Shown: one piece after another, positions 1-26,168 of the stretch
How the letters are laid out: every line of letters begins with the position of its first letter
Numbering within the stretch: position 1 is the stretch's first letter
Origin: a virus
Taxonomy: Duplodnaviria; Caudoviricetes
DNA length: 64,000 nt
Direction: 5' to 3' (one strand)
Virus record (IMG/VR): IMGVR_UViG_3300010885_029461
Span: 2,991 to 66,990 of that record
Made by a program: the position numbers and the translations under genes
Notes under the pieces: model-generated
What the model was told of the DNA's origin: nothing
Databases searched by the model: none
Seen by the model: the letters and a program-made list of their open reading frames with translations, nothing else

Positions 1-1
1 T

Positions 2-100
2 GGAGATAAACTCTCTCAAATGCGAAATAAGATTAAAGAAATATATGATGACTATTTTTCATTAGAAGGCGTATGCACTCAAATACTTAAAAGACTATAA
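2..100 (+). CDS. 3' end of a gene truncated by the window edge (GDKLSQMRNKIKEIYDDYFSLEGVCTQILKRL*), possibly an exostosin-like glycosyltransferase
   Basis: Open frame from 2 to TAA at 98-100, overlapping the next ATG (TAATG). The product guess rests only on C-terminal resemblance and the glycan-island context. Confidence 0.4.
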   Translation, partial: GDKLSQMRNKIKEIYDDYFSLEGVCTQILKRL

Positions 101-1041
101 TGTTTAAAGCAGATTTCCCCCTTCGTTTCCCTTGTATTGAAGATGCCGACGAAGATTTTAATAAATTAAAATCCACATCATTTTTATCCCTTCTTAAAGA
201 AGGCGAGTGGTTTTCTCGTTCTGATTTTTCTTCAGATTTGAAGATACCTCAATATATAGACTTTGATCAAACTGGAGCAACATCATCGAATATATTTCAT
301 GCCGCTACACGATATGCATGCGACAGCCTGAATAGCCCTTCGGTCATTAGAGGATGGTACGAACCTAAGATTAGAGCAACTTTAGAGAATAGTAAATTCT
401 ACGAAACCAATCCGGCTACGGCATTAGTTCTTAGGAAATATCTTCCTTCCCAATTTCGACCTTCTGCTGCTAAATGTATTTTTGAAAAATACAAACCTCG
501 CTCATATTATGATCCATGTGGAGGATGGGGAGATAGACTAACCGCAGCAATGGCAACACATATTCCCGAAATATATGTCAGAGACGTAAATCCTCTTGTG
601 TTCTGTGGATATACCCAACAAGTCAATAGATATTGCCCCGACGATTCTATTGTAAAGATGGAATTAAATGGTTGCGAAAATCCTATTCCAATGACAGATA
701 TTGATCTGATCTTTACTTCTCCTCCTTATTGGAAAGTAGAACATTATCAAGGAGAGTTACAAAGTTTTAGAAAATATAAAAAATTTAAGAATTGGTTAGA
801 AGATTTTTTATTCGTTACTATACAAAATAGTTTATCTGCACTATCTCAAAACGGAGTATTTTGTCTCAATGTCTCTGATATATATGCCAATCATGAATAT
901 AATAAAATTATTCAACCCATATTGGATACTTTCTCGTCTAATTGTAAAGGGGTAATGGGGTATAGAATGCGTAAAAGAATGAATTCTAAGTCAGATAATA
1001 CTGGAATATTCTGTGAACCTATGTTAATTTTAAAGAAATGA
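100..1041 (+). CDS. DNA amino-methyltransferase (N6-adenine/N4-cytosine)
   Basis: SAM-binding motif I YDPCGGWGDR followed by catalytic motif IV FTSPPY. Confidence 0.85.
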   Translation: MFKADFPLRFPCIEDADEDFNKLKSTSFLSLLKEGEWFSRSDFSSDLKIPQYIDFDQTGATSSNIFHAATRYACDSLNSPSVIRGWYEPKIRATLENSKFYETNPATALVLRKYLPSQFRPSAAKCIFEKYKPRSYYDPCGGWGDRLTAAMATHIPEIYVRDVNPLVFCGYTQQVNRYCPDDSIVKMELNGCENPIPMTDIDLIFTSPPYWKVEHYQGELQSFRKYKKFKNWLEDFLFVTIQNSLSALSQNGVFCLNVSDIYANHEYNKIIQPILDTFSSNCKGVMGYRMRKRMNSKSDNTGIFCEPMLILKK

Positions 1042-1187
1042 CTTTAGAACAAGAAGTAAAAGTACAAGCCTTCATGAAAGGCGCATATAAGATGATGCAA
1101 AGCGAAGATTGGAATGAATCTCGCGCCCAAGAATTCATTATGGAATTAGCAGAATTATACGAAAAAATGTATCTATGTAAACAATGA
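1038..1187 (+). CDS. small hypothetical protein (49 aa, MTLEQEVKVQAFMKGAY...)
   Basis: Below the ORF-track cutoff; ATGA overlaps with both neighbours. Confidence 0.6.
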   Translation: MTLEQEVKVQAFMKGAYKMMQSEDWNESRAQEFIMELAELYEKMYLCKQ

Positions 1188-1975
1188 AGTATTTATTCGT
1201 TTTGAGTTCCTATTCTGATCATCGTCAACAAATATTTGATGAAGTTATATCCCCTCGCAATAAACAATACTGTGAGAAACATGGATTTAAATATGTTGAG
1301 ATTCGGAAAGAAAATAATCCCGTTCCATTTAGAGGAAACCTGACTTGGAATAAATGGTCTATTATTAAAGATTTAATAGATACTGGAAAATTAAAAGACG
1401 GAGATATTATTATACAACAAGATGCAGACGTTGCCATTGTCAATGATGCCGTCACATATGAACCAATAGAAGGTAAATCTATATCTATCTGTGTTGACAG
1501 CGGAAATACCTACTGCAATGGAATTTTTGGATTACGTATAAATGACTGGACACGTCAATTAGTGAATAATATCCTTGATGAAGATCGTTTTCAGAGAATG
1601 TTGAGAGAGTATACTGTTCATGAGGGGATACCCAATAGACCTCCAACTACTTTCATTTCCGAGTTCAGAGAGCAAGCAGTATTCTATGATTTATTTGGTA
1701 TTAAGCGACATTCGTGGATTCCCTTCACTAAATTACCCAATAATGGAGTTCATTCGGATAAGAAGCCTACTACATTTTATTCCATAGAAGATTTTAATAA
1801 CAACGTGCAAGTTCTGCCTGTGGAATATAATTTAACTATTTGGCCGGGAGAATCTGATACCTCTTTCTATATCAATAAGTTTGATAATAAATACGGTGTC
1901 TTTTTTCGACATTTTACTGGAAGTGACTGGCAAGTTGCTTCTAAGTGGGTTACATTAGTATCAAATGAATGGTGA
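1184..1975 (+). CDS. GT34 (GMA12/MNN10-like) glycosyltransferase
   Basis: NKQYCEKHGFKY, WNKWSII, DxD motif (QQDADV), EQA and HFTG motifs. Confidence 0.75.
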   Translation: MKYLFVLSSYSDHRQQIFDEVISPRNKQYCEKHGFKYVEIRKENNPVPFRGNLTWNKWSIIKDLIDTGKLKDGDIIIQQDADVAIVNDAVTYEPIEGKSISICVDSGNTYCNGIFGLRINDWTRQLVNNILDEDRFQRMLREYTVHEGIPNRPPTTFISEFREQAVFYDLFGIKRHSWIPFTKLPNNGVHSDKKPTTFYSIEDFNNNVQVLPVEYNLTIWPGESDTSFYINKFDNKYGVFFRHFTGSDWQVASKWVTLVSNEW

Positions 1976-2162
1976 ATTAATCAACTTAATAAAAAAGTGG
2001 GCTAAACATATTAGCGATGTTGCTGCTTTACGAGGACGGGACGGCATATATACTGATTCATCACATACTTGTCATGGTTGTGGGAACGGTCCCGTCTTAT
2101 TTCTACAAGATGGTTTATGTGATGAATGCCATAGAGCATATAACCAAATATTAAACTCATAA
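1965..2162 (+). CDS. small Zn-finger-like protein
   Basis: CHGC...CDEC; overlaps both neighbours. Confidence 0.55.
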   Translation: MNGELINLIKKWAKHISDVAALRGRDGIYTDSSHTCHGCGNGPVLFLQDGLCDECHRAYNQILNS

Positions 2163-2308
2163 TGAATAAAATACCTTTATATTACGACGATATCTGTTTA
2201 ATTCCTGATAATTTCTCCGAGTTAGAAACAAGGGATAATGCAGATACTTCCACCAATTTCTTAGGATTTAATGCAAGAAATCCAGTTATACCAGCTAATA
2301 TATTATAA
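2162..2308 (+). pseudogene. guaC: 5' fragment (48 aa) of a second GMP reductase allele
   Basis: Translates MNKIPLYYDDICLIPDNFSELETRDNADTSTNFLGFNARNPVIPANIL*, matching the GuaC/IMPDH N-terminus (YDDI.LIP...R...DTS...P.IPAN); stops 2 nt before the intact copy. Confidence 0.8.
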
Positions 2309-2310
2309 CA

Positions 2311-3279
2311 ATGAGCAACAAAATAACACAAAATTTAAATTATAGTAATATTTTACTTAAACATGGTAAATGTCGAGTGGATTCGCGTTCTCAATGTGAT
2401 ATATCTACTACTATAGGAAATAAAAAAATTAATTCTCCGGTGTTTCCTAGTAACATGCCCGCAATTATTAATGCTGATATTTGTAAAACTTTCGATGAAT
2501 CTGGATGGTTCTATATTTATCCTCGACTAGGAGGAAACAGTAACATCATCAATTTTCTAATAAGAGCAAAGGAAGAGAACTGGAATATTATATCTATTTC
2601 TATAGGAATTAAAGATGAGGATAGAACATTAATTAATTGGATTGCAGATAATTATACTCGGAAAGACCTCTTTATTACCATTGATGTTGCATTATCATAT
2701 CAAGATAGAGTTGAAGAAATGATTAAATATGTTAAATCCGTATTACCTGATGTATATTTAATTGTTGGAAATGGCGACAGTCCTGAATGGATAGAATGGC
2801 TAGAAGATTTAGGTGTAGATGCAGCAAAGGTGAATATAGGAGTTTCGAGCAGTTGTCGAACCAGACAATTTACTGGATTTGGATCAACATCTGTTGGTGA
2901 TTTATATGCAATGTCATTGGTAGCAAATAAAATCAAAATTATCTCCGATGGAGGAATTACTAAATGTGAAACAGGTGAACCTGCAATTGGAGATATTGCG
3001 AAAGCTATTAGATTTGGGGCAGATTATATTTGTAGTGGGTTTGTATTTTCCCAATGTATAGATTCCCCTGCGATTAGAGAAGGATACTTCGGAAATTCCA
3101 CCGCTAAGGCAAAGGGGCATAATTCTCATATTGAAGGTACGGTCATTAAAACATATACTAATGGAAATACTATTAAAGAACAGATAAAATTAATTGAAGA
3201 TTCTTTAAAATCGTCTGTTAGTTACAGTGGCGGGAAATCACTTAATAGTTTAACAACTTGCGATTATATTATAGTTTGA
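2311..3279 (+). CDS. guaC: GMP reductase (IMPDH/GMPR family, no CBS domains)
   Basis: SRSQCDIS, PVFPSNM, IDVA, IVGN, KVNIGVSSSCRTR (catalytic Cys loop), ISDGGI, GDIAKAI, HIEG, SSVSYSGG. Confidence 0.88.
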   Translation: MSNKITQNLNYSNILLKHGKCRVDSRSQCDISTTIGNKKINSPVFPSNMPAIINADICKTFDESGWFYIYPRLGGNSNIINFLIRAKEENWNIISISIGIKDEDRTLINWIADNYTRKDLFITIDVALSYQDRVEEMIKYVKSVLPDVYLIVGNGDSPEWIEWLEDLGVDAAKVNIGVSSSCRTRQFTGFGSTSVGDLYAMSLVANKIKIISDGGITKCETGEPAIGDIAKAIRFGADYICSGFVFSQCIDSPAIREGYFGNSTAKAKGHNSHIEGTVIKTYTNGNTIKEQIKLIEDSLKSSVSYSGGKSLNSLTTCDYIIV

Positions 3280-4117
3280 TATTTAAATATTGAATAAAAT
3301 TCATAGATACTGTATATTTCCTAGATAATCCTAATGATTTTTCTTTATAAATATAATTGATAAAATTTTCAATATTATTTTTTCCAGTTATTAATAGTCG
3401 TGAATATGAGTTTTTATTTTTATTACCTTTAACAACTCGACTTGTTATATTATTTTTTGATAGATGCGATATAAATGACCAATCTTGTTCATAGGTCGAG
3501 GTTATAGCCACGGAATATTGCCAAGTTTTATAATTGGTGGTGATGTTACCGTCGCCGTCAAAATATCCTCGCCACCAATAATGTTGTAATTCTGTAGGTA
3601 TATGAGTTAGAACATTATTCGCAGATACTTGACTTTTATCGAAAAAATCCAAAGATAATAATAGGTTATATAATTGACGATCATGACACGATATAGTTAT
3701 AACTTCATTTTTATGACATTTATATTTAACCTCTTGTATTTTCCAATTTCCAGTTTTATTAAAAATATTTATCAGTTCTAATGCGTCTGATTTTTTTAAG
3801 GTTATGGTAATTCTTGTAGAATTTTTGGTATTTCGTATAGAACCGTCTGCCCACAATAAACCTAAAATATATGCTGCTTCCGCAGTTTGAACATTTATAA
3901 ACATTTCTCTATGTATTTTATATTTTTTTGACATATCCTGTTTATTTAAAATATGTTTTAATTTATCAGATTTAGTCATTTTGATATTTTTATTTCTACA
4001 TCTTGACCAAATAGCATCAGTTGTTCGATTTAAATATGTTGCACAAAAGCTTGCTCCCATATTAGAATAGTGTGTGGTTAAAAAGTTATCATCCATCAGT
4101 GTCCATTGTTTACCCAT
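3269..4117 (-). mobile_element. free-standing double-motif LAGLIDADG homing endonuclease with an N-terminal HTH-like segment
   Basis: Motifs AYILGLLWADGSI and YWWRGYFDGDGNI; convergent with and overlapping the 3' end of guaC; TAAATA just upstream of its start. Confidence 0.85.
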
Positions 4118-4148
4118 ATATGTATTTAGCAGGAATTACTGTATTTTA

Positions 4149-4177
4149 TTGAAATGAGACGTGTAATAAAGTATCAT
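4149..4177 (+). promoter_or_regulatory. sigma70-type promoter TTGAAA-17-TATCAT, 5 nt upstream of ATG 4183
   Basis: Consensus-like hexamers with a 17-nt spacer. Confidence 0.65.
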
Positions 4178-4182
4178 ATACA

Positions 4183-4347
4183 ATGACTTTAAAACATGTT
4201 GAAGGATTTATGGTAGGGTTAGAATCAGATAAAACCATTCTGGAGAAGATGAATGAGATTAATCAAGCCCTTGCAAGTTCTATTTCTTATGCAGGTGGGC
4301 AGAAATTAGATGATTTGAAAGGAATTGATTACTTAATACTAAAATGA
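4183..4347 (+). pseudogene. guaC: 3' fragment (54 aa) of a GMP reductase allele
   Basis: [54 protein letters not shown] matches the GuaC C-terminus; ATGA overlap with fcl. Confidence 0.85.
4192..4320 (+). repeat. direct repeat copy 1 (guaC 3' end); partner at 6381-6509
   Basis: 129-nt manual alignment with 14 mismatches; the first 36 codons encode identical amino acids. Confidence 0.9.
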
Positions 4348-5264
4348 AGAAGAATCTTTTCATTGCAGGACACCGTGGTCTAGTTGGTAGCGCATTATTA
4401 CGCTCCTTAGACATAACCAAATATAAACCCATCCTTCGCACCCATGAAGAGCTTGATTTAACCAATCAGAGGGCAGTTAATTATTTTTTCGATTATAATA
4501 AAATTGACGAAGTGATTATTGCAGCGGGTAAAGTTGGCGGTATACATGCTAATAAAACTTATCCAGCCGAATTCATTTATAAAAATATGATGATTGTGGC
4601 TAATTGTGTTCATGCGGCATATAAATCAGGAGTAAAGAAATTATTATTTTTAGGAAGCTCTTGTATATATCCTAAACACTCCATAACACCCATCACCGAA
4701 GATCAATTACTATCAAGTGCATTAGAACCTACCAATGAACCATATGCAATTGCAAAGATTGCAGGTATTAAACTATGCGAAACCTATCAGAGACAGTATG
4801 GTGTCGATTACCATTCTATTATGCCATGTAATCTATATGGTATAAATGATAATTATGATTTAGAAAATTCTCATGTTATTCCCGGTCTAATTCGTAAGTT
4901 CCATATTGCCAAATTGAAAAAAGAACCTACCATCACATTATGGGGGTCAGGAAAACCTTTTAGAGAATTTCTAAATTCAGAAGATTTAGCAAGAGCGGCA
5001 TATAAAGTATTAGATACACAGAACCCCCCTTCTATTATTAATGTGGGAAGCGGAACCGATATATCCATTAAGGATTTGGCATATATTATTAAAGAAGTGG
5101 TTCAATATGAAGGAGAAATTATATTTGATGAAACAAAACCTGATGGAACTTTTAAAAAGACCATGGATAATTCATTGATTCGGACATTTGGCTGGCAACC
5201 ACAGATAGACATGAAAGACGGATTACACCTAGCATATAATGACTTCCAAAAAAGATACTCTTAA
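4344..5264 (+). CDS. fcl: GDP-L-fucose synthase
   Basis: [67 protein letters not shown]. Confidence 0.95.
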
Positions 5265-6159
5265 GATCAAATTCGTTGATTTCTGGCCTAATTTGGTCGA
5301 GACAGATAACTATTTTTATCATTTATTGTCACAAGAATATAATGTGTTAATTGATGCTCAAGAACCTGACATTTTATTTTATTCAGTTGACTATGCCAAC
5401 AAACAAGAGCATAGAAATTATGATAGAGGGAATATCAAGAAGGTATTCTATACTGGAGAAAACATGCATCCTGATTGGAACAAGAGTCATTTCGCATTCA
5501 CCTTTGATCATAATGATCATGACGGGCGGAATTACAGATTACCTCTTTGGGCATTACATATAAACTGGTTCAATGTGCCACATAATGATGATAGGGATCA
5601 ATCGTATCTACATGATCCTGAGTTATTACTTAATAAGAACTTCGATGAACGTATTTTTGATACTAAACCGGGATTTTGCGCATTTATAGCAGGACAACCT
5701 AAAGGGAAACGGATGGATTTCGTGCCTAAGTTGCATGTAAGAAAACATATTCATTGTGCAGGACGTGTTTATAACAATACCAATGGCGTTATTTCTGGTA
5801 GAGGGGATCAGAAGGAGAAGATTGAGTTTCTTAAACAGTTCAGATTTAATGTTGCATTTGAAAATGAAGAAGCATATGGATATACTACAGAAAAAATCAT
5901 ACATTCGATGTTTGCTAACTGTATTCCGATCTATTGGGGCAATCCTTATGTGGGTCATGATTTTAATTTTAATTCATTTTTTAATTACGAGTCATACCCT
6001 ATTGAAGAAATATTATTAGATGATATTATTCGACTAGATTCTGATAGAAACAAGTACCTAGAGAAGTTAAATACTCCATGGTTCAATAACAACGAGTTTC
6101 CTTATAAAGTTCGTCCTGAGAATGTATTGAAATTTTTCAAAAACACAATTTTAAAATGA
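5239..6159 (+). CDS. GT10 alpha-1,3/4-fucosyltransferase-like protein
   Basis: FYTGEN, YRLPLW, and the GT10 motif [34 protein letters not shown]. Confidence 0.88.
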
Positions 6160-6536
6160 AGTTACCCCGAATAGATATATTTAAAAAGTATGGAGAAGGA
6201 CATTTGCCTCGTCCACAACCTTCTGACATGGGCGATATTGCGAAAGCTATGGTGTTTGGCGCTAAGATGGTGATGTGTGGCGGTCTATTCGCTCCATGTA
6301 TCAACAGTGCGGCTAAGATCAACAATGAGGGCAAGAAAGAGTATTTCGGTTCTGCTTCATTCCATTGTAAGAAGCATGATAAACATGTTGAAGGATTTAT
6401 GGTTGGTCTGGAATCTGATAAAACTATTCTAGAAAAGATGAATGAGATTAATCAAGCTCTTGCAAGTTCTATTTCTTATGCTGGTGGTAAGAAATTAGCG
6501 GATTTGAAAGGCACAGATTATTTGATAATTATATAG
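6156..6536 (+). pseudogene. guaC: chimeric ORF: about 24 unrelated N-terminal residues fused to the C-terminal ~100 aa of another GMP reductase allele
   Basis: MGDIAKAMVFGAKMVMCGGLF...YFGSAS...KHVEG...SSISYAGG; lacks the catalytic Cys loop and the N-terminal two-thirds. Confidence 0.8.
6381..6509 (+). repeat. direct repeat copy 2 (guaC 3' end); partner at 4192-4320, offset 2189 bp
   Basis: Manual alignment to 4192-4320. Confidence 0.9.
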
Positions 6537-7286
6537 ATGAGTATAGACAACCTTTCCATAAATTTACATTGCGGATGCGATAGAAATATTGTAACGAAAC
6601 AAATAGAATCACATAATATATTAGGAAAGAATATTGATTGGAATTTGCGTATTGATAGATATCCTCTAGCATATCCATCATATTCACAACTCATGAATCA
6701 TGCTATCGCAACAAGTAAACATGAATGGATGATTTTTGTTAATGATAGAACCATGACTTCCACAGAAGAAACAACAAAAATTATAAAATTACTCGAAGAA
6801 GGATATGCATGTGTATTATTATATAATGTGGGATATATGGGTTTTTCTAAAGAGCTTGTTAGAAAAATAGGATGGTGGGACGAACGCTATAAATTGGGAG
6901 GATGGGAAGATCGAGATTGGGTGTTTCGTATAGCACAAGCCGACTTAGCTCTATATGAATCTCAGGAGGCGCACTATGATTATTCTTGGAAAAGTCCTCT
7001 ACAGGTTATAGGACATGGGTGCAGAGAATCACAACCTCACTGGGATAGTAAATGGGACCAAAAGTATCATGATGCTATCGTAAAAATGATTCCTGAAGAA
7101 AATTATGAGCACTGGAATTTGTTTCTAGGTGACACTAAACCAGAAATACGTTCTATGTGGAAAAGATGGGGGGATAGTGTTTTAAATATCGGATTCGATA
7201 AACCAAACAGTGGACCATCCTCAAGTAGTATGATAAAAAACAGAAAAATAGTTGATTTTTCTCAGGTTAAACATTTAATACAATAA
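6537..7286 (+). CDS. GT-A (GT2/GT7-like) glycosyltransferase
   Basis: YSQLMNHAI, FVNDR, IGWWDERYKLGGWEDRDW. Confidence 0.75.
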   Translation: MSIDNLSINLHCGCDRNIVTKQIESHNILGKNIDWNLRIDRYPLAYPSYSQLMNHAIATSKHEWMIFVNDRTMTSTEETTKIIKLLEEGYACVLLYNVGYMGFSKELVRKIGWWDERYKLGGWEDRDWVFRIAQADLALYESQEAHYDYSWKSPLQVIGHGCRESQPHWDSKWDQKYHDAIVKMIPEENYEHWNLFLGDTKPEIRSMWKRWGDSVLNIGFDKPNSGPSSSSMIKNRKIVDFSQVKHLIQ

Positions 7287-7287
7287 T

Positions 7288-7872
7288 ATGATAAACGTAT
7301 TCGTAGATTGTGGCGCTAACCTCGGGCAAGGATATAATAAACTTATTAAAAGATTTGGAGTAAAGTTTGATAAAGTTTATATGTTCGAACCCAATTTAAA
7401 AACATTTAATAAATTACGAAAGATAGAGCATGCAAATAATATGGTTTTTATGCAAAAAGCAGTATATAATAAAAATTGTATAAAATCTCTTAATATAGAA
7501 TATTGTCCATCTGAAAAAGATTTTGTTGGTTGCGCCACCAACATATTAGAAAATATATATGTAAAACCTAATTATATTGCAAATGAATATATGACTAATA
7601 TTCCTGATGGAAATGTGAAAGTAGAATGTGTTGATATCTCTGAATTTGTGAAAAATAATTTAAATAATGAGGATTTTAACGTATTGAAACTGGATATAGA
7701 AGGAGTCGAATACGAGGTTTTAGATAAACTAATAGATGATAATTTATTGTCATATTTCGATACGGTAATTGTAGAATGGCACCCACATATACGAAGCGAT
7801 AAAGTGAAAGATATTGAATATTATTTGAATATCTTTCGAAAAAATAATATTGAATATATACATTGGGATTAA
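7288..7872 (+). CDS. FkbM-family methyltransferase
   Basis: FVDCGANLGQG, MFEPN, LKLDIEGVEYEVL, VEWH. Confidence 0.88.
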   Translation: MINVFVDCGANLGQGYNKLIKRFGVKFDKVYMFEPNLKTFNKLRKIEHANNMVFMQKAVYNKNCIKSLNIEYCPSEKDFVGCATNILENIYVKPNYIANEYMTNIPDGNVKVECVDISEFVKNNLNNEDFNVLKLDIEGVEYEVLDKLIDDNLLSYFDTVIVEWHPHIRSDKVKDIEYYLNIFRKNNIEYIHWD

Positions 7873-7881
7873 TTTAGTTTT

Positions 7882-8814
7882 ATGAAAATATTGGCATTAA
7901 CCACCCGAAATCCGAATACACAAGGAGATTATTTAGAACTATCCTTGGTTCACGGTTTGCGGGAATTATTGGGTGAAAATTTCGTGGAGTATCCAAAAAA
8001 GAAAATATTATATGGTGATTTTTCTGACTCACCTAAAGAAAGATTACACGGAAAAGGTTTCACTCTATGTTCCGATCCAATAAAAGACGTATCATATGAC
8101 AGATATAAATTGAATGTTCATGATTTCGATGTAATTATACATGGTTCAGGTCATATGTATGGAGATTATTGGGAAGTTGATCATCCTAACCAGTTCTGGA
8201 CTGACGGTAACGATCTATATGGAAATGCTAAGAGAAAAATAATATTTCAGAATGAAAATATCATAGGAACACAATACACTGAACGATGTTTTAAGCGCGA
8301 ATTGACTGAAAATTTTCCTACCGTATGGCCCACAGGGTTCGGTATTCCCGAAAACAAGATACGACCATATACCACATATAAACAGAGAATTTTTCAAAGT
8401 ACAGCCCCATCAGATGCATGTTTTTTAGAGAATTCTAGATATAAATTTGATGACGAAGATTTATATTATCATGATATGCAAGAAAGCTGGTTTGGACTGA
8501 CATGTAAAAAAGGTGGATGGGACTGTCTACGACATTATGAAATTTTAGCCAGTGGTGCAGTGCTATTATTCAAAGATTATAACAAAAAACCACCATTATG
8601 TGAACCAATAGATTTACCCACTCTTAGTTATTCAACTAAAGAAGAACTGGATGAAATAACTACAAGACTGATACAAAATAATCAACCAACTAGAGAATAT
8701 CATGATTTACTGCATAAACAGAGACTTTGGCTCTGTCAAAAGGGTACCACTTTAGCAAGAGCAAAACAGATAGTAAACTATATTACAAATTATGAACAAT
8801 ACAATGAGAGATAA
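7882..8814 (+). CDS. putative GT-B glycosyltransferase
   Basis: CFKREL and KKGGWDCLRHYEILASGAV, resembling a GT-B C-terminal nucleotide-sugar-binding motif; island context. Confidence 0.6.
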   Translation: MKILALTTRNPNTQGDYLELSLVHGLRELLGENFVEYPKKKILYGDFSDSPKERLHGKGFTLCSDPIKDVSYDRYKLNVHDFDVIIHGSGHMYGDYWEVDHPNQFWTDGNDLYGNAKRKIIFQNENIIGTQYTERCFKRELTENFPTVWPTGFGIPENKIRPYTTYKQRIFQSTAPSDACFLENSRYKFDDEDLYYHDMQESWFGLTCKKGGWDCLRHYEILASGAVLLFKDYNKKPPLCEPIDLPTLSYSTKEELDEITTRLIQNNQPTREYHDLLHKQRLWLCQKGTTLARAKQIVNYITNYEQYNER

Positions 8815-9382
8815 AGCAGAATTAATTAATTTAATAATTTCCCATAAAAAATATAAGAGTTATTTGGAATTAGGTGTAGGACATAGAATAGAAACCATAT
8901 CCCAGATTAATTGTAAGGAAATTATATCTGTTGATATCGAAAAAATTACAGAAAATATACCCAGTTTTGTCGGAACAACAGATGATTTTTTCAAATCAAC
9001 TGAACAAAAATTTGACATTATATATATAGATGCAGACCATCATTTTAAATCGGTCGATAAAGATTTTAAAAACTCCATAGAGCATCTTACACGAGATGGT
9101 ATAATATGTATGCATGATATTGGTCCTGTATCTGAACACGACACACGGCCTCGCGCAAGCGGCACTGCATTTATGTCATTCATGCACATTCGCGAAAATC
9201 CCGAATTTGATGCGTTTTCATATGAATTTGAAAACGGTGACATATTAGGATTAGTCAAGCTATCTACTAATACTGAGGTCTGGATTTCACCGGAACCAAG
9301 GGGATCATTTGCTACATATATAATACACAGAGATACTATCTTACGAAAAAAAAATATAGAACAAATAGTGGAAAACATATAA
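8792..9382 (+). CDS. class I SAM methyltransferase (Methyltransf_24-like)
   Basis: SYLELGV, TTDDFF, FDIIYIDADH, GIICMHD. Confidence 0.85.
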   Translation: MNNTMRDKAELINLIISHKKYKSYLELGVGHRIETISQINCKEIISVDIEKITENIPSFVGTTDDFFKSTEQKFDIIYIDADHHFKSVDKDFKNSIEHLTRDGIICMHDIGPVSEHDTRPRASGTAFMSFMHIRENPEFDAFSYEFENGDILGLVKLSTNTEVWISPEPRGSFATYIIHRDTILRKKNIEQIVENI

Positions 9383-9404
9383 ACGATGCTTTAAATATTA
9401 AACA

Positions 9405-10388
9405 ATGTATAACAAGAGAAATATTTTAATTACTGGGGGATTAGGTTTTATAGGAACCCATTGCATTAAAAAATGGGTTAAAGAAAATTACGATGTATAT
9501 ATAATTGATAATTTATCAACTAATGCAATATCTATCGCACATGCGCTCGAACTAGGGGCCAAACATATATATAATAAAGATATTCTAGAGATGAAGTGGG
9601 AGGAATTTAATATCAAGTTCGATATAATTTTACATCTAGCGTCCCCAGTTGGACCAGTTGGAGTTTTAAAACATTCAGGCAATATGGCTAAATTAATTTT
9701 AGATGATATCTATTGGGCTATCGAAGGTGCTAAAATTAATAATTGTCCGCTACTATTTGTATCGACATCGGAGATATATGGATATAGAGCATCTAAGACC
9801 TATTTGAGAGAAGAAGATGATAAAGTTTTACATGGGGAATTTACTGTTAGAAATGAATACGCAATGGCTAAACTTTTAGCCGAAATTGTATTAAAAAATA
9901 ACAGTAGAATATATCCGAAATTAAAATATCAAATTATACGACCATTTAATGTAACAGGAGCATACCAATTACCTGATGGCGGATTTGTACTGCCAAGATT
10001 TGTTCAACAGGCATTAACAGAGGATGATATAACAGTTTATTATTCTGGGGAACAGAATAGAGCATTTACATGGGTAACAGATATTGTTGAGGGTATTTTT
10101 CTTACATCAATAGCAAATAAACAATTGTGGAATGAGGAATGGAATATAGGGAATGCGGAAAACGAAAATACTATCTTACATCTTGCCCAAAAAGTTAAAG
10201 AGATAACCAATAGTAAATCAAAAATAGTTAACGTTGATCCTATAAAATTACATGGCCCACTTTTTACAGAAGCCCCAGAAAAAATTCCCAATAGCGAGAA
10301 AATAATGAAGTTGTTGCATTGGAAAGGTACGAAAAACACAGACGATGTTATCGAAGAAGTAGTCGAATTTTATAAAAATAATGAATAA
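9405..10388 (+). CDS. NAD-dependent sugar epimerase/dehydratase (UDP-glucuronate decarboxylase-like)
   Basis: ITGGLGFIG, HLASP, STSEIYG, YAMAK, RPFNVTG, RAFTWVTD. Confidence 0.85.
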   Translation: MYNKRNILITGGLGFIGTHCIKKWVKENYDVYIIDNLSTNAISIAHALELGAKHIYNKDILEMKWEEFNIKFDIILHLASPVGPVGVLKHSGNMAKLILDDIYWAIEGAKINNCPLLFVSTSEIYGYRASKTYLREEDDKVLHGEFTVRNEYAMAKLLAEIVLKNNSRIYPKLKYQIIRPFNVTGAYQLPDGGFVLPRFVQQALTEDDITVYYSGEQNRAFTWVTDIVEGIFLTSIANKQLWNEEWNIGNAENENTILHLAQKVKEITNSKSKIVNVDPIKLHGPLFTEAPEKIPNSEKIMKLLHWKGTKNTDDVIEEVVEFYKNNE

Positions 10389-11115
10389 GAAAATAGGAAT
10401 CATAGGATATGGTGAGATAGGAAAATCTCTAGAAAAATGTTATCTAGGTAAAAAATTTGATATTTTTATCAAAGATATTAACATAGATGAAGGATTAGCG
10501 GACTGTGATATATTGAATGTATGTATCCCGTATTCTAATAATTTTGTAGAGGTGGTTTCCGATTACATTTTACAATTAAATCCTAAACTAACTATCATCC
10601 ACTCCACAGTTATACCAGGAACAACGCAAAAGATTATCATGCAAGCAAACACACACGATATTGTCCATAGTCCAGTAAGAGGAGTACATCCCAATCTATA
10701 TGAAGGGCTTAAAACATTTACTAAATATATCGGATCAGACCAACCCGAAGTTGCAGATAAGACGGCTCAACATTTCCAGCAAATAGGAATAAATGGAGTA
10801 ATAGTAAATAATTCAAAGATATCCGAATTAGCTAAAATACTATGTACTACATATTATGGAATGTGTATTGCATGGCACAACGATATCAATGAGCTATGTA
10901 AAGAATTAAATGTTGATTTTGAACAAGTTTCAACTACATGGAATACTTCATATAATGAAGGGTTCAAAGAATTAGGAATGGAAAATGTAGTAAGACCTGT
11001 TCTATATCCGCCAAAAGATAACAAAATTGGCGGACATTGTGTTATTCCAAATGCGGAACTATGTAAAGAATTTTTCAACTCTCCAATACTAGATTATATT
11101 TTAAAATTGAAATAA
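10381..11115 (+). CDS. short UDP-glucose/GDP-mannose dehydrogenase family protein (no C-terminal domain)
   Basis: GIIGYGEIG, STVIPGTT, ELAK, IGGHCV catalytic Cys; only 244 aa. Confidence 0.8.
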   Translation: MNKKIGIIGYGEIGKSLEKCYLGKKFDIFIKDINIDEGLADCDILNVCIPYSNNFVEVVSDYILQLNPKLTIIHSTVIPGTTQKIIMQANTHDIVHSPVRGVHPNLYEGLKTFTKYIGSDQPEVADKTAQHFQQIGINGVIVNNSKISELAKILCTTYYGMCIAWHNDINELCKELNVDFEQVSTTWNTSYNEGFKELGMENVVRPVLYPPKDNKIGGHCVIPNAELCKEFFNSPILDYILKLK

Positions 11116-11117
11116 AT

Positions 11118-12113
11118 ATGAAAATAGCATTCCACAGTTATCAACTCGGCGAAAGAGGAACAGAAATATGTCTGTATAAATATGCAAAATATAATAGGGA
11201 AATTCTAGGGAACGAATCTGTTATTATATCAACCTCATCTAGACCAATGCCGTCAGCAAACAGATTCAGAGAATTTGAAACGTTTGTATATCCTCAAGTA
11301 TGGAAAAATGACGGGAAGAACATAGAACTTAGAGATTCACTGGAACGTTTATGTGAAAAAGAAAAAGTCGATGTTTTTTATGCCATTAAAGGCGGAGAGG
11401 CTGACGGATTCATGCCAACAAATACACGAAGTTTAGCTCATTGTATTTTTAGAATGGATGAACCTCATGGAAACGTTTATGCGGGAGTATGTAAATATAT
11501 TTCGGATAAATATAACTCCATTCACCCATATGTTTATCATATCATAGAGAAAGAGGCTCCAGATGTTACTGATGATTTCCGCAAAGAATTGGGTATTCCA
11601 AGAGATGCGCTTGTAATAGGAAGACATGGAGGCAGAGATACGTTTAATTTGGAATTTGTTAAAGATGCTATACGTCAACATTTAAATGAAAACGTGCGAC
11701 AAGACATTTATTTTGTATTCCTGAATACACAGGAGTTTGTGCATCATGAACATGTCAAATACTTACCTTGGACCATGGACGAAGCCGCCAAGGCTAAGTT
11801 CGTAAATACATGCGATGTAATGCTCCATGCCCGATATGATGGAGAAATTTTTTCTCTTTCTACGGCAGAGTTCTCTATAAGAAACAAACCAATTATCACA
11901 TGGAAACCGGATATCATCCCCGCACACTATGATACCGGACATCTATTAACATTAGGAGATTTATGTTATACGTATAAACATACAGAAGATTTGAAATATT
12001 TACTGAAACATTTAGATAAAGACGTTTTTAGCCGTACAGACTGGAATATGTACGGTGACACATATTCTCCTAAAAATATTATGGATCAATTCAACACCGT
12101 TTTCTTAAAATAA
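11118..12113 (+). CDS. GT-B (GT4-like) glycosyltransferase
   Basis: ERGTE, FRKELGIP..ALVIGRHGG, CDVMLHARYDGEIFSLSTAEF..KPIIT. Confidence 0.75.
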   Translation: MKIAFHSYQLGERGTEICLYKYAKYNREILGNESVIISTSSRPMPSANRFREFETFVYPQVWKNDGKNIELRDSLERLCEKEKVDVFYAIKGGEADGFMPTNTRSLAHCIFRMDEPHGNVYAGVCKYISDKYNSIHPYVYHIIEKEAPDVTDDFRKELGIPRDALVIGRHGGRDTFNLEFVKDAIRQHLNENVRQDIYFVFLNTQEFVHHEHVKYLPWTMDEAAKAKFVNTCDVMLHARYDGEIFSLSTAEFSIRNKPIITWKPDIIPAHYDTGHLLTLGDLCYTYKHTEDLKYLLKHLDKDVFSRTDWNMYGDTYSPKNIMDQFNTVFLK

Positions 12114-12145
12114 TGAATAGTTGGTCTAATCTACACTTAAAATGA
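12113..12145 (+). other. 10-codon minigene (MNSWSNLHLK*) bridging two genes
   Basis: Starts within the upstream stop (TAATG) and ends within the downstream start (ATGA). Confidence 0.5.
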
Positions 12146-13089
12146 TAATATCTTGTTGTCCATTAAGAATTTCCTTGGTTGGAGGAGGGTCAGACCATCC
12201 TTATTTTATAGAGAAATATAAAAGAGGTTCGGTTATATCATTTACATCTAACTTAAAGGTATATGTTACGCTACATAAAGATATCGCGGGCATTAACTAT
12301 ACTGACAAAAAATTTATAATAAATTATTCCCAAAGAGAAGAAGTCGAGAACATCAATGATATACGTAATGATATAGTTAGAAAAGTACTTCAATATTTCG
12401 ATATTGATTATACATTAACCATAAGTCTAACATCTGATATTTCATCTAGTGGGTCAGGTCTAGCATCATCTAGTGCGTATATTTTAGCCCTAATAAGTGC
12501 ATTAAATTTCCAAAATAATTGGAATTTATCAGAATTCGAAGTATGTAAAATCGGTTTCAATATAGAAAAATCGATAAATCCTCTAGTAGGTCAACAGGAT
12601 TTATTTGGGTCACTGGAGGGAGGATTGAAAAGGATAGATTTTAGTTTAGATTCCGACCCGTCAATAACCATTCTGCCTCCGATATTTGATAACGAAAATA
12701 TATATCTAATACATACAGGGATATGTAGAAATTCTACAAATATACTACATAATATTAATATAGATAATTCATTTGCATTATTGGAAGAAGTGTCAAATTT
12801 TGAAAAATATATAAAATCTGATAACATAAATAAAATATATAGTACAATTAATGATGCGTGGAAAATCAAAAAAACTACTTCGGATTTGATATGTGGCAAC
12901 GAATCGATTAAAGTCCTAGATAATATACTATCTTTGAATCCTAACATTTTTGCCCATAAATTATGTGGAGCAGGTAATGGGGGATATTTTCTGGTATTTG
13001 GTGATATATCCTCCATTCAACAACAAATAACAAATACCATTATACCTATATCAATAACAAACACAGGTATCAGCGTTAAAAAAATATGA
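12142..13089 (+). CDS. hddA: GHMP kinase, D-glycero-alpha-D-manno-heptose 7-phosphate kinase-like
   Basis: PLRISLVGGGSD, GSGLASSSA, VGQQD, KLCGAGNGGY. Confidence 0.85.
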   Translation: MIISCCPLRISLVGGGSDHPYFIEKYKRGSVISFTSNLKVYVTLHKDIAGINYTDKKFIINYSQREEVENINDIRNDIVRKVLQYFDIDYTLTISLTSDISSSGSGLASSSAYILALISALNFQNNWNLSEFEVCKIGFNIEKSINPLVGQQDLFGSLEGGLKRIDFSLDSDPSITILPPIFDNENIYLIHTGICRNSTNILHNINIDNSFALLEEVSNFEKYIKSDNINKIYSTINDAWKIKKTTSDLICGNESIKVLDNILSLNPNIFAHKLCGAGNGGYFLVFGDISSIQQQITNTIIPISITNTGISVKKI

Positions 13090-13586
13090 TCATAAATAAC
13101 TTAATATCACATATAAATCGTTTAGATTCTTCTAAGATAGAATCGTTAAATAAATATATATCCGCTCATAAAAACATAATAATTTTAGGAAATGGGGGTA
13201 GTTCGTCCATTGCTTCTCATATAGCACAGGATTACACTAAAGTATTAAAAAAAAGATGTTTAACTTTTTCCGATTCTTCGCGATTAACGTGTTATATAAA
13301 TGATTATGGACAGGAGTATGCATATTCTAAATTTTTAGAAGAGTTTTCGTACCCGACTACTTTAGTAATATTGATATCATCATCAGGTAATTCCAAAAAT
13401 ATAATAAATTGTGCAGAATTATGTGTGACAAAACAAATACCTTATATATTATTAACCGGATTTGATATGAATAATTTGCTTCGATCTAATTTTTCAGATA
13501 ATGCATGCTTAGAATTCTGGATAGACTCAGACTGCTATGGCACTGTAGAAACACTGCATCAAATTATTTTACACTCGGTATGTTGA
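13086..13586 (+). CDS. gmhA: SIS-domain phosphoheptose isomerase
   Basis: GNGGSSSIASH, NDYG, ISSSGNSKNI, LTGF, YGTVETLHQIILH. Confidence 0.85.
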   Translation: MIINNLISHINRLDSSKIESLNKYISAHKNIIILGNGGSSSIASHIAQDYTKVLKKRCLTFSDSSRLTCYINDYGQEYAYSKFLEEFSYPTTLVILISSSGNSKNIINCAELCVTKQIPYILLTGFDMNNLLRSNFSDNACLEFWIDSDCYGTVETLHQIILHSVC

Positions 13587-13628
13587 TATATACTTGCAAC
13601 ATAAAGATCACACACTAAATATTTTTAC

Positions 13629-14258
13629 ATGGAAATATTAGAACAAAAACACGGTAAATCGATGGACGAAGGGCATCTAGGAGGTTGGGCATTAGAAGGA
13701 GACGGAGGAACATATTATCCTGTAATGTGGGAACATTTAATTAATATATTTAATATTAAAAGTGTGTTGGATATAGGATGTGGAAGAGGATTTTCTACTA
13801 GATTCTTTAAAAGTCTAGGATGTAAAATTACTGGGATTGATGGCAGTATAAATGCAAAAAAACTAACTTTATTGGATTCAGATGAATTTTATCTCCATGA
13901 TTATAGTAAAGGAGAAACAGATATATCCGAATCATATGATTTATGCTGGACATGTGAATTTGTAGAACATGTTGATGCACAGTATATATCGAATTTTGTA
14001 AATGACTTTAAGAAATGTAAATATGTTGCTATGACTTTTGCAGCTATAGGACAAGGAGGACATCATCATGTGAATGAAAACACTCAAGAATATTGGGTTG
14101 ACATTCTCGAAAAAGCTGGATTCTCTTTTTCAGAACAATATACTAAACTATTTCGAGCACTAGCACTTGTGGATAAGAAAGATAGAGAAAACACCGCCAA
14201 TTGCCCTTTCTTTATATCTCATTTCGTAGAAAGAGGTCTTTTTTTTGAACGTAAATGA
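13629..14258 (+). CDS. class I SAM methyltransferase
   Basis: VLDIGCGRG, GIDGS, YDLCWTCEFVEH, GQGGHHHVNE. Confidence 0.85.
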   Translation: MEILEQKHGKSMDEGHLGGWALEGDGGTYYPVMWEHLINIFNIKSVLDIGCGRGFSTRFFKSLGCKITGIDGSINAKKLTLLDSDEFYLHDYSKGETDISESYDLCWTCEFVEHVDAQYISNFVNDFKKCKYVAMTFAAIGQGGHHHVNENTQEYWVDILEKAGFSFSEQYTKLFRALALVDKKDRENTANCPFFISHFVERGLFFERK

Positions 14259-14991
14259 ATATTGCTATATGTTTCAGTGGAGAATTACGTAGTTTAGATA
14301 AAACATATAAAAAATTATTTAAGCTATTATTATCGGATAAAACACATATATATGATTTATTTTATTTTGGTTGGACAGATGATAATGATATTGATAAAAT
14401 TAAATATTTTGACAGTACTGATTCACCCTTTATATATAAATTAGAAGATCGTATCACATTTAACATCGGAGATTTTTTTCCCAAACATTCAAATATTATA
14501 CAATATCAGAACATAATACGGCAATTATATTGTGTCAAAAGAGTAAATGATATGAAAATAGAAGCAGAGGTTGCAAAAAAAAAAAATATGATTTAGTAAT
14601 ACGTGTGCGCCCAGATTCATATCCTTTGAATGATCATGTTTTCCAATATGACTTATTTGACAAATCCAAAATACATGTCCTAAATCATGATAATTGGCAC
14701 GGTTTATGTGATAGGCTATATCTAGGTAACTCGTTAAATATGAATACAGTGTCGAATCGAATAGAAAATCTATTATTATATGATTCTTTGGGTGGAATTA
14801 ATCAATATGAAGGATTCTTGTTATTTATTATTTATTATTATGGTATAGAGGTAGAACATATTGACTATTTAGAAACCTGTCTACTTCGAACCAACGGGGA
14901 ACGAGTTGGAGAGTTGATACATATTGCAGATGGAACGATTACTCGTACATTAAATGGTATATGGCATAATAACTTGCAAGCATATATCTAA
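14255..14991 (+). pseudogene. putative glycosyltransferase split by a frameshift in an A12 run (ORFs 14255-14596 and 14605-14991)
   Basis: N-part MNIAICFSGELRS; after the A12 at 14575-14586 the -1 frame reads YDLVIRVRPD...HGLCDRLYLG; adding one A fuses the two ORFs. Confidence 0.75.
14575..14586 (+). repeat. A12 homopolymer at the frameshift site
   Basis: ttgc-AAAAAAAAAAAA-tatg counted directly. Confidence 0.9.
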
Positions 14992-15007
14992 TGTGCTAAT
15001 ATATCAT

Positions 15008-15733
15008 ATGATATATGCAATAGACCTAGATTCAACCTTGTGCTCTTCAACAAAATCAAAAACATACGAGGACTGTCAGCCTATTATCAACCGAATACAG
15101 TATATTAATGAATTACATGAACAAGGAAACTATATTAAAATATATACTGCCCGAGGAATGACTCGGCACAATGGGGATGTAGCAAAAGCATACGATGATT
15201 TATATATATTAACAAAAACTCAACTTAAAAAATGGAATATCCGATACGATATATTGATCATGGGTAAACCGTCATATGATGTTATCATAGATGATAAAGC
15301 TATAAACGACAATGACTTCTTTAAAAGGCAAATCATAAAGGGTATAATCGCTGGATCATTTGATATTCTTCATCCCGGTTACATCAAAATGTTCAATTAC
15401 GCACGAAAACACTGTGGATATCTTATAGTTGCGCTTCATATTGATCCATCGGAAGAACGACCCACCAAACATACTCCTATCTTATCTGTGGAAGATAGGT
15501 TTAATGCACTCATGTCTCTCAAATCAATAGATGAGGTGTACACCTATTCGAACGAAAATGATCTATATGAATTGCTTGTGCAAATAGATGCCGATGTGAG
15601 ATTTGTAGGCGATGATTACATAGATAAAGATTTCACTGGTAAAAATCTAACAAAAGATATCATCTATATTGATAGATCACATGGATGGAGTACGACCAAA
15701 TTTAAACAATTAATTTATGATTCAAAAAACTAA
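15008..15733 (+). CDS. bifunctional HAD phosphatase / cytidylyltransferase-family nucleotidyltransferase (start likely ATG 15008)
   Basis: N-domain IDLDSTLC, YTARGM, MGKP..D.IIDDKA; C-domain GSFDILHPGY, EDRF, RFVGDDY, WSTT. Confidence 0.8.
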   Translation: MIYAIDLDSTLCSSTKSKTYEDCQPIINRIQYINELHEQGNYIKIYTARGMTRHNGDVAKAYDDLYILTKTQLKKWNIRYDILIMGKPSYDVIIDDKAINDNDFFKRQIIKGIIAGSFDILHPGYIKMFNYARKHCGYLIVALHIDPSEERPTKHTPILSVEDRFNALMSLKSIDEVYTYSNENDLYELLVQIDADVRFVGDDYIDKDFTGKNLTKDIIYIDRSHGWSTTKFKQLIYDSKN

Positions 15734-16628: not shown

Positions 16629-16837
16629 TCAAAGATATGCGCACCGCTTTTTTTCTTTTCCGACGAACTTCGCTTAATAGATAGGACGGTGGAATGATGT
16701 TTGTAGCAGGTTTACATGAAATTGAATTTGAATATATACCTTTACGATTCGGATTATTACGAGATAATGGGGATTATGTTCCGCCTACTGGATAAAAAAA
16801 GTTGAAATATGACATATATATTCATATATAGTATATT

Positions 16838-19853: not shown

Positions 19854-20154
19854 CGCAAAGCCTATATGTGAATTTAATATAAATGATAATTCCCCCGTAA
19901 ACTTAAAAGCAGGAATAGTGGATGCATTTTTCCTTGACAAGAGGTGGTGTATGGAAATTGTACGAGATGTGGCATATAAAGGAAAATTTAGAATATTTGA
20001 TGGATTAAATAATTTTCAATTTCTACATGAAGAACCTGTCAGTGTTTCTTATGATGCTAGATGGGGTGTTGATATTGCTGATCATCAAGAATATCAAGCA
20101 TTAGGTATTGCTGTAGTAGATAATAAAAAATTTAACATCTCTCAACCAGTATAA
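19831..20154 (+). CDS. hypothetical protein whose first 9 aa (METTDEQTA) are identical to the downstream thioredoxin
   Basis: ORF track plus direct repeat. Confidence 0.75.
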   Translation: METTDEQTAKPICEFNINDNSPVNLKAGIVDAFFLDKRWCMEIVRDVAYKGKFRIFDGLNNFQFLHEEPVSVSYDARWGVDIADHQEYQALGIAVVDNKKFNISQPV

Positions 20155-20188
20155 ATACATAACTTATGGAAACAACAGACGAACAAAC
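20150..20188 (+). repeat. 39-bp exact direct repeat, copy 2
   Basis: Identical to 19815-19853. Confidence 0.95.
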
Positions 20189-21859: not shown

Positions 21860-21861
21860 GC

Positions 21862-26166: not shown

Positions 26167-26168
26167 AG

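Follow-up and report, generated by a model that had tools for sequence, protein, structure and literature searches.

How does a complete gene come to lie, together with a gene for a homing endonuclease, between the two ends of another gene of its own family? The question is raised by a locus in a 64,000-nucleotide (nt) stretch of viral DNA, bases 2991-66990 of the 66,990-bp IMG/VR record IMGVR_UViG_3300010885_029461 (CheckV completeness 26%). We analysed this stretch as a whole and refer to it as the window; positions are those of the window unless a relative is named. The genes concerned belong to two types of guaC: guaC1, of which the window retains remnants, and guaC2, which is complete and adjoins the gene of a LAGLIDADG homing endonuclease. 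We favour the explanation that the endonuclease drove the displacement of guaC1 in situ by a block made up of guaC2 and the endonuclease gene, a reading that the comparison of sequences renders probable, if some way short of secure. The window encodes a T4-type large terminase, a tail sheath, a baseplate spike domain and a family B DNA polymerase, a set of genes that marks its source as a large tailed phage. The GC content is ~30-35%, no tRNA genes were found in the window, and the sequencing runs that hold its sequence are labelled as freshwater or lake metagenomes.

A block of guaC2 and an endonuclease gene in place of the middle of guaC1

The locus is built around four open reading frames (ORFs). 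A 48-aa ORF (2162-2308, + strand) contains a 140-bp 5' remnant of guaC1 (N'), in which homology to guaC1 stops at 2301, and its stop codon lies 2 nt ahead of the start of guaC2, a complete gene of 322 aa (2311-3279, +; Pfam IMPDH/GMP reductase, E 3.3e-24). Tail-to-tail with guaC2, and overlapping it by 11 nt, runs the gene of a 282-aa LAGLIDADG homing endonuclease (3269-4117, -; Pfam LAGLIDADG_3, E 2.8e-14; PHROG 4645 endonuclease, 9e-34). The endonuclease gene is a separate opposite-strand ORF with its own start at 4117, free-standing beside host genes. A 74-bp spacer (4118-4191) leads from this start to the 156-bp 3' remnant of guaC1 (C'), which is contained in a 54-aa ORF (4183-4347, +). 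Homology to guaC1 begins at 4192, the first 3 codons of this ORF being derived from the insert, and its stop codon overlaps the start of the fcl gene. An earlier note on this DNA had reported the same four ORFs and had described the enclosed guaC as intact and clearly different from the fragments around it, which we confirm: guaC1 and guaC2 are 35% identical.

The 48-aa and 54-aa fragments are too short to match a Pfam family on their own, and they are identified as guaC1 because their DNA matches the intact gene of a relative, L003. This relative was found by a scan of IMG/VR with a 126-aa ORF (6156-6536) as query, and the full record that contains it is G001. L003 carries a single uninterrupted guaC1 of 323 aa (7341-8312), followed by the same fcl and fucT genes as in the window. 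The ends of this gene match 2162-2301 and 4192-4347, so that the relative with one undivided guaC that the earlier note had envisaged does exist. By blastn, window 98-1428 aligns with L003 4299-5629 at 96.1% identity, with no match past 1428; window 2150-2301 aligns with 7335-7486 at 86.8%, and window 4192-6160 with 8157-10124 at 96.8%. Two further blocks pair window 6151-6231 with L003 10309-10389 (97.5%) and window 6226-6527 with L003 8002-8303 (88.7%).

Between the two remnants, the inserted block of 1,890 bp (2302-4191) stands in place of 670 bp of L003 (7487-8156; guaC1 codons ~49-271), as had been proposed when the block was said to have replaced the middle of a resident guaC. In alignments of the junctions, homology ends abruptly at 2301/2302 and resumes at 4191/4192, with few shared bases at most. 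Neither inspection by eye nor a repeat search revealed terminal repeats longer than ~7 nt at the ends of the block.

guaC1 and guaC2 are deeply separated types

In a set of 5.8 billion proteins, guaC1 and guaC2 each belong to a separate large family; alleles of guaC1 occur at identities of 100, 89, 89, 84, 84, 81 and 80%, and the closest homologues of guaC2, located on contigs of up to 262 kb, are 73% identical. A FastTree phylogeny, calculated without support values, of 67 full-length proteins and three guaC fragments from the window (47-102 residues) resolves the guaC1 and guaC2 types as two deep clades. All three fragments, namely N', C' and a third piece, C'', that is described below, fall inside a tight guaC1 group, so that the fragments do not belong to unrelated GuaC clades. 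C' is placed beside the L003 allele P0121, and N' and C'' are placed beside the 89% allele P0122. Protein identity to P0121-P0136 did not settle the alleles to which the fragments belong, the fragments being too short.

The best NCBIfam model for guaC2 is the GMP reductase PRK05458, for which guaC2 scores 227 bits and guaC1 281 bits at a cut-off of 344; for TIGR01306 the scores are 204 and 251 bits, respectively, at a cut-off of 465. Since both types remain below the NCBIfam cut-offs for GMP reductase, 'GMP-reductase-like' is the safe name for their products, and guaC is used here as a family-level name. guaC2 retains all invariant columns of the family. Its residues C182, T184 and R185, which form a Cys-x-Thr-Arg loop, are invariant in 16 homologues, and they align with a loop of guaC1 in which C184 and T186 are invariant in 13 homologues; we take the cysteine of this loop of the IMPDH/GMPR fold to be catalytic. 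guaC2 presumably keeps a GMP-reductase-like enzyme function. At the DNA level, the stretch in which guaC1 and guaC2 are most alike measures 40 nt at 78% identity.

The place of guaC2 in phages of this kind is apparent from L005, a more distant relative (47-77% protein identity). The gene order there is o49, o263, a guaC2-type gene (73% identical to guaC2), fcl (63%), o249 (57%), o310 (63%) and o196. The guaC2-type gene is the only guaC of L005 and occupies the same slot between o263 and fcl, and the 82-kb record of L005 contains no endonuclease of the window's family. As guaC2 is the sole occupant of the slot in L005, the event in the window amounts to a swap of allele types and not to the arrival of a cargo gene found only with a mobile element; the mobile unit of guaC and endonuclease gene that the earlier note had proposed is modified accordingly.

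Close DNA relatives were absent from GenBank phages in a megablast search with window 1-9000, and tblastn of guaC2 against GenBank phages gave matches of at most 37% identity only. Single-sequence scans with the endonuclease in IMG/VR, and with guaC2 in IMG/VR and metagenome contigs, returned no matches; the IMG/VR homologues of both proteins that are considered here were retrieved with alignment queries. Scans of IMG/VR with the guaC1 of L003 and with a guaC1 alignment yielded no second close guaC1 phage, and hence no genome that combines o65, an intact guaC1 and o249, the parent predicted by the crossover history given below.

The endonuclease and its family

An AlphaFold2 model of the endonuclease, calculated from 40 homologues, reaches a predicted local distance difference test score (pLDDT) of 94.6 and a predicted TM-score (pTM) of 0.87. 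The best folds in the PDB found by Foldseek are those of the bI3 maturase, I-AniI and I-OnuI, which are single-chain LAGLIDADG proteins, with E values of 1e-9 to 1e-8 and TM-scores of ~0.5, the lower TM-score being due to an extra N-terminal three-helix region (residues ~7-62). The two LAGLIDADG motifs are located at residues ~83-92 and ~180-190, and Pfam LAGLIDADG_3 covers the second domain only. An acidic residue is conserved at the end of each motif helix: D187 and D189, like the glycines G92 and G190, are invariant, and at least 90% of the 40 homologues share D91. The protein is predicted to be a single-chain LAGLIDADG pseudo-dimer of two core domains with the alpha-beta-beta-alpha-beta-beta-alpha fold, and as modelled it looks intact.

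No other member of the endonuclease's family occurs in the 66,990-bp record. The closest relatives of the protein are 57%, 48% and 46% identical, and both copies present in L003 are 30% identical and located elsewhere. Family members lie directly against a guaC2-type gene (at least 45% identical) at 4 of 22 loci, or at 3 of 19 if duplicates are merged (L006, L008/L009 and L032), and no other copies of the family were detected in the flanks of these loci, which comprise up to 6 kb per side and much less on short contigs. The association of the endonuclease with guaC that the earlier note had assumed is thus found in other phages as well. The orientation of the endonuclease gene relative to guaC is tail-to-tail in L006 and head-to-head, at a distance of 15-34 nt, in L008/L009 and L032. 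The guaC2-type gene of L006, an unrelated contig, is 57% and its endonuclease 34% identical to those of the window, and the two genes share the same 11-nt tail overlap, with the stop inside the same Ile-Ile codons. Such an identical overlap suggests that guaC2 and this endonuclease lineage were paired long ago and have been inherited together.

Further arrangements of related genes were observed. L080 (4169-6331, -) and L081 encode a 720-aa GuaC/IMPDH-like ORF that is interrupted, at precisely the catalytic-Cys loop, by an intein-like insert with two LAGLIDADG motifs; tail-to-tail with this ORF runs the gene of a free-standing endonuclease from the window's family (L080 2998-3981, +; the same in L081). 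L078/L079 contain a longer guaC/IMPDH-like gene (1733-2959, -; ~420 aligned columns to guaC1, 35% identity) and, head-to-head with it at a distance of ~40 nt, another family endonuclease (3001-3774, +). The homologue pairs P0243/P0011, P0245/P0107 and P0306/P0097 agree in the lengths of their longest contigs, 64,645, 88,058 and 197,690 bp, with identities of 48%, 43% and 32% for the endonuclease and 63%, 47% and 55% for guaC2; the members of each pair may reside in the same genomes, which we regard as only a lead. To judge from L080 and L081, homing elements seem to have targeted guaC repeatedly in these phages.

The remnants represent different guaC1 alleles

The remnants N' and C' are identical to P0121 at 43 of 47 and 50 of 51 residues, and differ from L003 at 20 of 152 and 5 of 156 nt, respectively. 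Judged by this difference in divergence (Fisher p = 0.0015), N' and C' are probably parts of different guaC1 alleles. The earlier note had taken them for the ends of one resident allele; their membership of one guaC1 clade stands, and the counts speak against a single allele. On the simplest reading, the tract ~1429-4191, which contains o65, N', guaC2 and the endonuclease gene as well as the 3' part of o263, would be of single origin and an L003-like block would begin with C'. A single origin of this tract would agree with gene conversion in which the crossovers fell in o263 on the left and at the start of C' on the right. The event had also been characterised as replacement of a whole gene rather than co-conversion of flanks: this is a fair description of the outcome, but the flanks look co-converted as well.

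A third piece of guaC1, C'', had been overlooked. It extends over 6226-6536 (codons ~221-323) and represents an allele ~11% from L003, from which it differs at 34 of 302 nt, or 27 of 156 nt over the part shared with C'; compared with N', its divergence gives a Fisher p of 0.54. Window 6381-6534 is a direct repeat of 4192-4345 with 86% identity. C'' forms part of a chimeric 126-aa ORF (6156-6536, +) that opens with the first ~25 codons of the FkbM-type methyltransferase gene of L003 (starting at 10314), located at 6156-6231 in the window and in frame with C''. This ORF matches the IMPDH profile at positions 219-327 (Pfam E 2e-8). C'' ends exactly at the start of o249, a gene with 57% amino-acid identity to the L005 gene directly after fcl, and ~6 nt are common to both sources at the joint of methyltransferase and C''.

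The fusion of the methyltransferase start with guaC1 implies a second, illegitimate crossover. Its breakpoint falls within the guaC1 stretch that is deleted by the block, beside the 40-nt segment in which guaC1 and guaC2 are most alike. A single illegitimate crossover at the ~6 shared nt could have joined the 5' end of the methyltransferase gene to guaC1 codon ~221, its parents being an L003-like genome that already carried the block and a genome with an intact guaC1 followed by o249. Through this crossover another glycan-gene island would have entered the genome, with C'' remaining as a leftover of the exchange.

The junctions recur in other sequencing runs

We compared Logan contigs of the runs X1-X4 with the window. 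X1 is probably the source sample, X2 and X3 belong to other studies, X3 also to another year, and parts of 1900-6700 that are uncovered in X2-X4 are not taken as absence. Contigs of X1 bridge positions 2302, 4191, 6160, 6226 and 6537 with 0 differences, and X2 contains identical pieces, including bridges of 6160 and 6537. In X3, a contig corresponding to 3107-4228, which runs from the final part of guaC2 through the entire endonuclease gene and the right junction into C' (first 37 nt), shows 1 difference in 1,122 nt. A second X3 contig (2162-2478), which crosses the left junction, shows 24 differences in 317 nt, and a third (4212-4332) shows 11 in 121 nt. The flanks in X3 diverge by 8-9%, and beyond 2162 and 4332 they are unlike the window.

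These counts point to near-identity centred on the endonuclease within diverged flanks, although the X3 contigs are short and may mix strains, and the junctions in X3 and the other runs demonstrate that the structure is real and present in a second genetic background. A peak of identity at the endonuclease is the pattern to be expected after endonuclease-driven conversion, and it agrees with the description of islands of homing endonuclease genes (HEG-islands) in other phages (PMC10448857). A contig of X4 matches N' (2161-2301, 1 difference) and is then unlike the window, which fits an intact guaC1 of the N' allele.

Neighbouring genes and transcription signals

Just upstream of the variable region lies an ORF with a DNA methylase N6/N4 domain (100-1041; Pfam E 2.9e-7; 99% protein identity to L003). 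The next gene, o263 (1184-1975, +), is a mosaic with a breakpoint near 1428: its residues 1-82 are 89% identical to L003, and its residues 83-263 are 44% identical to L003 and 77% to L005. It overlaps the small Cys-rich ORF o65 (1965-2162, +), for which no tblastn match was found in L003-L044 and no match in Pfam, NCBIfam or PHROG. L003 carries in this place an endonuclease-family gene (6143-7081, -), which overlaps the 3' end of o253 by 4 nt, and then a 74-aa ORF; in the window, o65 occupies the place of both. The adjoining two-thirds of o253 and o263 are strongly different in the two phages (44% amino-acid identity) and form a second swapped segment next to an endonuclease gene (L003 5385-7340; window 1429-2162).

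Downstream of the remnant C', fcl (4344-5264, +; Pfam Epimerase 1.3e-57) encodes an NAD-dependent epimerase/reductase resembling GDP-fucose synthase, with 100% amino-acid identity to L003 and 63% to L005. It is followed by fucT (5239-6159, +), a GT10 alpha-1,3-fucosyltransferase-like gene (Pfam FucT_N 3.6e-20, Glyco_transf_10 6.8e-12) that is 99% identical to L003. fucT is intact in the window and split by a frameshift into two ORFs in L003 (9204-10123). An L003-like contig of 18.5 kb in X4 lacks one base at window position 5952, so the frameshift occurs in a natural population. L003 has a 64-aa ORF (10120-10314) between fucT and the methyltransferase gene that is absent from the window, and the 10-nt overlap of the blastn blocks at window 6151-6160 suggests a short direct repeat at this indel.

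The gene o249 (6537-7286, +; PHROG glycosyltransferase, 1e-6) is the first of ~10 kb of glycosyltransferase-like and unknown genes (6537-16800) that constitute a hypervariable glycan-gene island. This region has no DNA match to G001, which has ~3 kb there; the gene order is L005-like, and the flanking core is 94-99% identical to G001. Over window 20150-34053 the identity to G001 is 99%, and in the variable region blocks of 86-97% identity alternate with stretches of no match.

The spacer between the endonuclease start and C' contains promoter-like matches on both strands, at 4149-4177 (+; sigma70-type, 10 of 12 consensus positions) and at 4202-4173 (-; 9 of 12). Between 1900 and 6700 we found 38 such sites, compared with 29.3 +/- 6.1 in shuffled sequences; the match is no better than chance and therefore carries no weight. 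The new sigma70-type promoter and the re-promotering of the glycan operon that the earlier note had proposed thereby lose their support. A terminator scan gave 2 sites versus 1.7 expected, both upstream of the features of the guaC locus.

Origin of the arrangement

Single-chain LAGLIDADG homing endonucleases make site-specific double-strand cuts at targets of 14-22 bp in alleles without their gene. According to the explanation we favour, the endonuclease would cut intact guaC1 within the stretch that the block has removed (candidate region L003 7487-8156), and the break would be repaired by copying from a co-infecting genome that bears the block. The two remnants and the further flanks would then act as homology arms for spread. 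If guaC2 lacks the target site and keeps its enzyme function, invasion would cost the phage little, and the spare guaC2 would play the role that an intron or intein plays for other homing endonucleases. N' and C' are in frame and end at the starts of guaC2 and fcl, respectively, so that translational coupling may be kept. The anatomy of the locus, the intact guaC1 of L003, the synteny of guaC2 in L005, the overlap common to L006 and the junctions in other runs are observed; that guaC1 is cut, how and in which direction the block spreads, and what guaC2 does are parts of the scheme that we infer. In a stronger form, the guaC2-endonuclease pair would be a self-contained gene-replacement drive, in which the conserved, active-site-coding stretch of guaC1 is cut, the remnants are kept as arms and the spare gene provides harmlessness; this proposal is tentative and we regard it as rather doubtful. 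One may speculate that the cut site lies near codon ~221, where the C'' breakpoint meets the 40-nt most-alike segment.

Several observations weigh against displacement driven by the endonuclease, and some of them would also be expected if related phages in one host cell had recombined illegitimately in the ordinary way at the margin of the glycan island, the endonuclease being a passenger that already lay beside guaC2 in the donor. The left junction joins non-homologous positions of guaC1 and guaC2, which in the absence of a repeat longer than ~7 nt makes the founding event illegitimate and leaves it unexplained by the endonuclease alone. Recombination without an endonuclease is common in a hypervariable island with so many breakpoints: in the comparison with G001 across 1428-16800, blocks of 86-99% identity take turns with stretches that have no match, a further breakpoint is located at 1428 inside o263, and the C'' junction (6226-6231) is plainly illegitimate with no endonuclease gene beside it. 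The near-identity of X3 and the window that is centred on the endonuclease is left unexplained by passive transfer, as are the repeated direct adjacency of the family to guaC in unrelated contigs and the position of the sole family copy in 67 kb exactly here, and we consider such an origin unlikely. Other objections concern the target. The pairing in L006 suggests that the ancestral home of the endonuclease is the 3' end of guaC2-type genes, and its cognate target might be endonuclease-free alleles of guaC2 rather than guaC1. With 187 related stretches in IMG/VR, the family is a large one whose members mostly lie beside other genes; guaC-like sequence occurs within 3 kb in only 6 of the 79 best loci, which represent three near-identical pairs (one of them L080/L081), and none of 10 distant guaC1-like loci has a family copy. 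The nearest endonuclease of L003 overlaps o253 and not guaC. To these are added the NCBIfam scores of guaC1 and guaC2 below the cut-offs, the absence of the exact 25-nt right junction from any other IMG/VR contig, and the nature of the X3 contigs, which are short and possibly derive from more than one strain.

The polarity of the exchange could also be reversed, with guaC2 as the resident of an L005-like backbone and the guaC1 pieces as end debris of separate L003-type imports: o65 with N'; C' with fcl, fucT and the methyltransferase start; and C''. The window order o263, guaC2, fcl, o249, o310, o196 follows that of L005, and both the 3' two-thirds of o263 (77%) and guaC2 (73%) are L005-like. 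This history needs at least two independent imports that place the N- and C-terminal pieces in the right order and orientation, whereas a single insertion into guaC1 yields the N'/C' arrangement at once. The closest core relative (99%) has an intact guaC1, and the N'/guaC2 and endonuclease/C' junctions are found in another background in X3, both of which render the reversed polarity improbable. Still less credence is due to an assembly chimera of mixed related phage strains, an origin that comes to mind since the record is a metagenome-assembled contig and samples of this kind contain related strains side by side. All five joints are bridged without a difference in X1 (possibly the source sample), two of them (2302, 4191) in X3, from another study, and two (6160, 6537) in X2; the junctions offer no sequence common to guaC1 and guaC2 by which an assembler could be led astray. 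Displacement of guaC1 by guaC2 and the endonuclease remains the history that we judge probable.

Comparison with known systems

Homing endonucleases usually avoid harm to their host by hiding in introns or inteins, or by lying between genes and converting similar flanks. The locus described here would represent a third outcome, in which the nuclease gene is accompanied by a complete, unrelated-looking copy of a gene and the resident gene is gutted. Phage genes that are split by the insertion of an endonuclease gene have been described, with mobE in nrdA of Aeh1, mobA in gene 60 of T4 and seg43 in gene 43 of phage 25 (PMC2988022). As in the window, the endonuclease gene is located inside the coding region of a gene of nucleotide metabolism or replication, at a new site. 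The split halves in the mobE, mobA and seg43 cases, as summarised in that account, still form a working enzyme (PMC2988022), whereas guaC1 of the window has lost 223 codons including the catalytic loop; function must come from guaC2.

The free-standing endonucleases of T4, such as SegF at gene 56 and SegG at gene 32, provide the model of intronless homing with co-conversion and marker exclusion (PMC2988022). Both there and in the window, a free-standing endonuclease lies beside a gene that is thought to be cut in relatives lacking it, and L003 is an endonuclease-free close relative with intact guaC1 at the locus. In T4, the endonuclease gene is copied during repair along with donor sequence on its flanks, so that the recipient allele is replaced (PMC2988022). 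The T4 alleles are portrayed there as similar enough for ordinary recombination, which leaves no remnants (PMC2988022), whereas the two types in the window are 35% identical and scars remain. The T4 enzymes, for which cleavage has been shown, are of the GIY-YIG or HNH type (PMC2988022), in contrast to the LAGLIDADG enzyme of the window with its predicted cleavage.

In the HEG-islands of ICP1-like and other phages, homing endonuclease genes lie at the boundaries of exchange and appear to mobilise neighbouring cargo genes (PMC10448857). Nucleotide identity around these genes is very high in otherwise diverged phages (PMC10448857), resembling the relation of X3 to the window. Unlike the window locus, HEG-islands are arranged around essential genes for structure or replication, with endonuclease genes often lying to either side of these, and a cargo copy nested in the remnants of the gene it replaces is not among the arrangements described in the main text of that study (PMC10448857).

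The closest parallels are offered by the mORFs of fungal mitochondria, known from atp6 of Allomyces macrogynus and from atp6, atp9, cox2 and nad3 of Glomus, which carry the C-terminus of a foreign gene (PMC3630166). In mORFs as in the window, an endonuclease gene and a divergent copy of the invaded gene arrive together. According to the published description, the incoming copy takes over in mORFs, with endonucleases of the LAGLIDADG or GIY-YIG type, and the native part is left as an unexpressed downstream remnant (PMC3630166). In mORFs (PMC3630166) and in the window alike, it is the native remnant that clusters with close relatives, and the incoming part clusters elsewhere. The window order of guaC2, endonuclease and native C' remnant has the contiguity and downstream displacement of a mORF. 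As characterised in the same source, mORFs supply a C-terminal segment only, which results in a hybrid gene that is often in frame with the endonuclease ORF (PMC3630166). In the window, a whole gene with its own start is present, N- and C-terminal remnants are both preserved, the endonuclease is encoded on the other strand and the element resides in a phage; the N' stop codon ahead of guaC2 precludes an in-frame N'/guaC2 hybrid. By its predicted history, the window locus is mORF-like in mechanism but not a member of the mORF type of element.

In main texts of the open-access literature, we found no description of a phage endonuclease and a whole replacement gene nested in remnants of the resident. 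What is new here is the whole gene with its own start, the remnants on two sides, the nesting with the endonuclease on the opposite strand and the 35% identity between incoming and resident gene; the kind of event is already known. Displacement of this sort would explain swaps of metabolic genes at 35% identity among phages that are 99% identical elsewhere, and it would tie the mosaic edges of the glycan island to double-strand breaks. The locus also offers a testable set of one enzyme and two natural alleles, of which one is expected to be sensitive and the other resistant. Engineered cleave-and-rescue elements share the logic of a nuclease combined with a rescue copy. If the guaC2-endonuclease pair does act as a drive, the spare gene would be a third solution beside introns and inteins, of which the intein solution is seen in the guaC of L080, and guaC would be a hotspot in which a single gene allows the three strategies of homing endonucleases to be set side by side.

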